NCBI RefSeq assembly: GCF_058153355.1
Contig: NZ_CM177019.1
DNA: 64,000 bases
Reading direction: 5' to 3' (one strand)
A model generated the notes under the pieces. The model was not told the DNA's origin and did no database searches. It saw only the letters and a program-made list of their open reading frames with translations. Positions 20,197 through 20,393 of the stretch are shown here, piece by piece. Each line of letters opens with the position of its first letter. The first letter of the stretch is position 1. A program made the translations under genes and the position numbers.

Positions 20197-20273
20197 TGGT
20201 TGCGGGGGCCGGATTTGAACCGACGACCTTCGGGTTATGAGCCCGACGAGCTACCAGGCTGCTCCACCCCGCG
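20197..20273 (-). tRNA. tRNA-fMet (initiator), CAU anticodon
   Basis: Reverse complement is cgcggggtggagcagcctggtagctcgtcgggctcataacccgaaggtcgtcggttcaaatccggcccccgcaacca, 77 nt with encoded CCA. Confidence 0.95.
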
Positions 20274-20316
20274 TCACCGTACTGCTTTACTTCATCAAAT
20301 TTTGATTGGTTGCGGG

Positions 20317-20393
20317 GGCCGGATTTGAACCGACGACCTTCGGGTTATGAGCCCGACGAGCTACCAGGCTGCTCCACCCCGCGTCCGTGGATG
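20317..20393 (-). tRNA. tRNA-fMet (initiator), second identical copy
   Basis: Exact 77-nt repeat of the copy at 20197-20273, separated by a 43-bp spacer. Confidence 0.95.

Follow-up and report, generated by a model that had tools for sequence, protein, structure and literature searches.

In Escherichia coli K-12 three initiator tRNA genes stand in tandem beside mltA, and the corresponding locus of the stretch of DNA analysed here (64,000 nt, hereafter the window) raises the question of whether its array truly consists of only two genes and how that state arose. The supply of initiator tRNA sets the rate of translation initiation and helps to exclude elongator tRNAs from the P site, which makes the copy number of the array a real physiological variable. 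An earlier note on this DNA had reported two genes and named metZ, metW and metV for K-12, allowing that the reference might itself have two. The genome of MG1655 carries all three, each of 77 nt, with spacers of 33 nt.

Exactly two tRNA-Met(CAU) genes were predicted in the 64 kb with ARAGORN, both on the minus strand, and the Rfam tRNA matches (RF00005) coincide with them at 61.4 bits each. The promoter-proximal gene, in the position of metZ, occupies positions 20307-20383 and the distal, last gene positions 20197-20273. The two copies are identical to one another over their 77 nt, and on this point ARAGORN, Rfam and sequence comparison agree with what had been noted before. They are separated by a minus-strand spacer of 33 bp (20274-20306; plus strand TCACCGTACTGCTTTACTTCATCAAATTTTGAT), not by the 43 bp given earlier, so the array ends at 20383 rather than 20393 and has a length of 187 bp (20197-20383) rather than 197 bp. 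Additional copies were searched for with 30-, 26- and 16-nt probes from both ends of the gene, with 2-3 mismatches allowed and about zero chance matches expected. Only the two known sites were matched; hence there is no third copy, full or partial, within the 64 kb window, and the claim that none lies between amiC and mltA holds. The two-copy observation is thus real, and the earlier description of the array is partly confirmed, the exceptions being the spacer length and the end coordinate.

Both genes show the hallmarks of an initiator tRNA. The gene sequence, CGCGGGGUGGAGCAGCCUGGUAGCUCGUCGGGCUCAUAACCCGAAGGUCGUCGGUUCAAAUCCGGCCCCCGCAACCA, has the 5′ end CGCGGGG and the 3′ end CCCCGCAACCA, and its minimum-free-energy fold is a canonical cloverleaf with a CAU anticodon. 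In the predicted fold C1 is unpaired opposite A72, forming the C1 x A72 mismatch of initiators, and three consecutive G-C pairs adjoin the anticodon loop (GGG-CUCAUAA-CCC, paired in the fold), an anticodon-stem feature of initiator tRNA described previously (PMC3017606). The same paper describes the difference between the isoacceptor tRNA-fMet1, with G46, and the metY isoform, with A46. The window tRNA has G46 (it reads ...CCCGAAGGUCGUCGG..., as do K-12 metZ, metW and metV) and is therefore of the tRNA-fMet1 and not of the K-12 metY type. Both copies are 100% identical to K-12 metZ, metW and metV, and from this identity they are predicted to be formylated by Fmt and used in initiation.

The gene mltA (20592-21689, plus strand; NCBIfam murein transglycosylase A, 681.6 bits) is divergent from the tRNA operon. 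The probable metZWV promoter was read from the sequence at positions 20397-20424 of the minus strand, as TTGCAT, 16 nt, TATAGT and a GC-rich discriminator. This stretch is identical to its K-12 counterpart, with a few single-base differences elsewhere between the tRNA and the start of mltA, and it contains gaaaacgcgagcggagtatagtgcgcatccacgga, the sequence used by Kapoor et al. (PMC3017606). In that study promoter-down mutations were located in and immediately 5′ of the -10 element, and the promoter sequence tatagtgcgcatccacgga is given in the same paper. A strict consensus promoter scan made no call at this stretch, so the assignment of the hexamers is a putative one, based on identity with K-12. 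The intrinsic terminator of the operon was located by RNA folding at approximately 20145-20179 on the minus strand, as one strong hairpin followed by a U-run (AAACCGCAAUGUGUUUCACAGAUUGCGGUUUUUUU). The fold of positions 20135-20196 (minus strand) has an energy of -18.6 kcal/mol (z = -4.24), which none of 200 shuffled sequences equalled, and the single terminator claimed for the array is borne out. It belongs to the flank formed by the cassette described below, and differs from the metV terminator of K-12. As part of the explanation that we consider best, one sigma-70 promoter adjoining mltA probably drives a transcript of two tRNA-fMet1 genes, ended by this one intrinsic terminator.

Several of these traits are shared with K-12 metZWV (b2814-b2816): the position beside mltA, divergent from it, the nearly unchanged promoter region, the 77-nt genes, the 33-nt spacing and the period of 110 bp. 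The gene order in MG1655 is mltA, metZ, metW, metV, amiC, and its three tandem genes are followed by the metV terminator and then by amiC, whereas the window has only two genes and a PTS cassette as flank, with a terminator of its own. The window amiC (listed ORF 13364-14632, plus strand; true start probably a few codons in; NCBIfam AmiC, 799.9 bits) is separated from the array by an accessory cassette of five genes and 5.3 kb (14833-20118, plus strand), which lies directly downstream of the last tRNA gene and was missed in the earlier note. According to NCBIfam matches, these genes encode a LicT/BglG-type antiterminator, a malX-like PTS IIBC component, a PatB/MalY C-S lyase, a short KpsF-like SIS-domain isomerase and a D-2-hydroxyacid dehydrogenase. 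The cassette is absent from K-12 and present in 1,683 of the 5,426 complete E. coli genomes. This gene set, with its order unchanged, makes up the amiC-proximal end of PAI-CFT073-metV (c3405-c3410; PMC2831201). In CFT073, however, a 27-kb type VI secretion cluster lies between the tRNAs and the cassette and there are three tRNA copies, while in the window the cassette stands by itself next to two copies.

The presence of accessory DNA at this point bears on the origin of the short array, because its integration or excision downstream of the last tRNA gene might have removed a copy by site-specific recombination. No integrase is encoded among the five cassette genes, so the cassette lacks the mark of an integrase-borne island, and mismatch-tolerant probes for the tRNA 3′ end picked up no direct repeat at its far border, or elsewhere in the 64 kb window. 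Homology between the window and K-12 extends from mltA through both tRNAs and ends one base past the CCA of the last one, and this break exactly at a tRNA 3′ end speaks for such an origin. The GC content of the cassette (33-46%, compared with 50-57% in the flanks) and the status of the site as a known island hotspot, that of PAI-CFT073-metV (PMC2831201), point in the same direction. Nevertheless, the identical cassette junction is found with one, two, three or five tRNA copies, and two-copy arrays also occur with a plain K-12-type flank. With no integrase, no end repeat and a junction that is independent of copy number, an island-mediated site-specific origin was rejected as extremely unlikely.

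Copy number at the locus was determined in the 5,426 complete E. coli genomes by means of synthetic multi-copy arrays anchored on the mltA-side flank, with E-value limits chosen to suppress secondary pieces. A two-copy query with flanks could not count copies, its "tRNA-Met (x2)" labels describing the matched span only. With a three-copy query, a limit of 1e-50 joined secondary pieces of 187 bp and gave two- and three-copy genomes alike a coverage of 100%; in the version that worked, the flank was shortened and the limit set to 1e-100. Cumulative counts of 5,193 genomes (two copies or more), 5,000 (three or more) and 67 (four or more) gave the classes by subtraction. Three copies were thus found in 4,933 genomes (90.9%), two in 193 (3.6%, about 1 in 28), one or none in 233 (4.3%) and at least four in 67 (1.2%). 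An earlier five-copy query had placed 489 genomes off three copies, which is consistent with these figures. K-12, O157:H7, ST131 and CFT073 are three-copy among the genomes listed. Three copies are therefore modal and not universal, with about 9% of complete E. coli genomes departing from this number, and the census itself is a useful by-product of the analysis. Among individual records, NZ_CP144891.1 (MG1655p, a derivative of K-12 MG1655) shows only one tRNA-Met at the metZWV locus, while in NZ_CP008697.1 (strain ST648) the mltA-side flank matches and no tRNA is annotated under the match.

The 193 two-copy genomes and the 233 with one copy or none are complete, so real contractions are common. 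This argues against the possibility that the window array is an assembly artefact, in which a short-read assembler, taking the shortest path through its graph, collapsed a true three-copy array to two. An array of 187-297 bp can, moreover, be spanned by ordinary paired reads or by any long read. The sequence around it does not look sloppily assembled either: a 35-bp tandem duplication within ptrA was resolved, and an alignment of 40 kb with a near relative of the window contains only 3 gap openings, the differences being almost all substitutions.

The nearest relatives were found with a one-sided query (window positions ~20400-44000); a 24-kb query across the array was unsuited to ranking, since it favoured one- and two-copy genomes, whose pieces join. 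Over 23.6 kb, identity to the window reaches 98.3-98.9% in approximately 16 complete genomes and is at most 97.2% in the bulk of the remainder. The best identity among all 5,426 is 98.9%, hence the lineage of the window is rare among finished genomes. The same ~16 relatives carry the cassette at 99.6-99.7% identity. One of them, E. coli 24A16CRGN010 (L002), has three tRNA-Met genes on direct reading. The others are probably three-copy as well, judging from matches that break off at the array border or cover roughly 110 bp more. In 24A16CRGN010 the two spacers differ by a single base: the distal one, TCACCGTACTGCTTTACTTCATCAAATTTTGAT, ends in TTTTGAT and the proximal one in TTTTAAT. The only spacer of the window equals the promoter-distal spacer of this relative exactly and is one base off the proximal spacer. 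The middle tRNA copy of 24A16CRGN010 (25808-25884) carries, at gene position 62, a G>A change as read on the plus strand of the window, which in the tRNA amounts to C16>U in the D-loop; for Nissle 1917, a 2026 preprint describes a metW variant in the D-loop.

These relatives also supply what can be said for a collapsed array. The nearest complete genomes appear to be three-copy (one read directly, the rest judged from match patterns), and the three units are near-identical, the spacers of 24A16CRGN010 differing by one base and its middle tRNA by one. With units so alike, a low-k de Bruijn graph could pop the bubble and drop one unit, a point of reasoning rather than of computation. Set against the frequency of two-copy arrays in finished genomes and the quality of the surrounding assembly, we regard an artefact as unlikely.

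The reading that we favour is that the window comes from a genome of the E. coli lineage whose metZWV operon has contracted to two genes, down from three in its ancestor; we assign it a probability of nearly four in five. The direction of change, a loss, is inferred by parsimony, since 98.9% is the highest identity of any complete genome to the window, and the immediate ancestor thus lies outside the sample. The ancestor of the lineage most likely had three copies, and one 110-bp unit (a 77-nt tRNA gene plus a 33-nt spacer) would have been lost. Given perfect identity over 77 bp, close tandem repeats can undergo RecA-dependent exchange as well as RecA-independent slippage. The promoter-proximal tRNA copy may have paired out of register with the middle one, and the unit been lost by misaligned homologous recombination or by replication slippage. 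A misalignment of these two copies would remove the proximal spacer and keep the distal one.

Other short arrays in E. coli give an indication of how such alleles arise. Five two-copy genomes were checked by annotation and sequence: NRG 857C, CM2, Ecol_AZ162, NT1F34 and PapRG-06-5. Their downstream flanks are of three kinds, namely the K-12 type (NT1F34 and PapRG-06-5), the cassette type (CM2) and a third type (NRG 857C and Ecol_AZ162). The proximal spacer is kept in NRG 857C and NT1F34, and the spacer is of the distal type in the other three of the five. Since two-copy alleles may keep either spacer, they go back to separate events at different repeat pairs. All five resemble the window in having two copies at the same locus, but they belong to other lineages; NRG 857C and NT1F34 retain the proximal spacer, pointing to separate deletions. 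CM2 also has a cassette-type flank like that of the window; its region is 96.9% identical, and its spacer has 34 nt instead of 33.

Arrays of other lengths were found as well. GF124.3 has a single copy. PRO_A-1429 (PRO_A-1429-6M-A_ESBL; L008 401-919) has five copies, and its four spacers alternate in type (distal, proximal, distal, proximal) and in length (34 nt and 33 nt); this array apparently arose when a block of two units was duplicated by unequal exchange. Overall, the spacer patterns argue for repeated and independent gains and losses. The earlier note had attributed the two-copy state to copy-number variation by unequal recombination, and this proposal is supported by the three-copy relatives with the same flanks, the match of the window spacer to a distal one, the two-copy alleles with either spacer and the alternating five-copy array.

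Tandem initiator tRNA genes also occur outside E. coli. A scan of species representatives for adjacent pairs returned 67 loci, nearly all of them from Enterobacterales, with one pair in 47 loci, two pairs in 18 and three pairs in 2. ARAGORN counted two copies in the GTDB representatives of E. albertii, E. whittamii and Salmonella enterica subsp. arizonae and diarizonae, and three copies in three E. coli-like representatives. Two copies are thus a common state in the family. The Salmonella representatives share this number with the window, with spacers of ~28-29 nt. A parallel is offered by the metZ-metW array of Salmonella, in which initiator tRNA genes likewise stand in tandem, changes in their number alter fitness and amplification under selection occurs readily (Nilsson et al. 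2006, as cited in PMC2859245). Two copies are the normal state in Salmonella, where the change on record is not a loss: the array amplifies to a high level in fmt mutants under selection.

The prevalence of two copies in these relatives (47 of the 67 loci are single adjacent pairs, including those of E. albertii, E. whittamii and Salmonella) would also agree with a lineage that never had a third gene and simply retained the older enterobacterial condition. This is difficult to reconcile with the distribution within E. coli, where 91% of genomes have three copies, K-12, O157:H7, ST131 and CFT073 among them. The near relative 24A16CRGN010 is three-copy and has the window spacer as its distal spacer, and the other two-copy alleles of E. 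coli keep different spacers, evidence of repeated recent losses. We consider retention of an ancestral pair very unlikely, and contraction from three copies remains the preferred reading.

Levels of initiator tRNA correspond to gene copy number (PMC3017606). Cells deleted for metZWV grow more slowly, are cold-sensitive, initiate less faithfully and allow non-initiator tRNAs to start translation; even removal of metY by itself relaxes fidelity to a measurable extent (PMC3017606). Partial loss of copies is harmful in rich medium and beneficial in poor medium (Samhita et al. 2014, as summarised in PMC9981150). The statement in the earlier note that dosage affects growth rate and initiation fidelity agrees with these reports. 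As tRNA-fMet tracks gene number, a modest drop in initiator tRNA would be expected in the host of the window array, to about three quarters of normal if metY, which lies outside the window, is present elsewhere. In light of the published dosage effects, one copy fewer should act mildly on growth and initiation fidelity, in a condition-dependent manner. The array might further be seen as a fast and reversible dosage dial, with the contraction an adaptation to a slow-growth or nutrient-poor niche and not a neutral accident; we regard this as doubtful. Public genomes and published work already contain examples of the two-copy allele and of the mechanism, and the contraction is a recurrent, known kind of polymorphism, of small importance, at a well-studied locus.

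Further features of the window were recorded during the annotation. The ptrA gene, which encodes pitrilysin (962 aa in relatives), is split into ORFs of 524 aa and 449 aa (3296-4870 and 4870-6219). It contains the tandem duplication mentioned above (4733-4812; period 35 bp, 2.3 copies), which is lacking in 24A16CRGN010. As 35 is not a multiple of 3, the duplication shifts the frame and splits the gene, and ptrA of the window is probably a pseudogene. Two small RNA genes are present at full length, GcvB (24707-24912, minus strand; 199 bits) and CsrB (43093-43452, plus strand; 377 bits). Their order with respect to the array and their relative strands presumably fit the K-12 map, with the window reverse-complemented.
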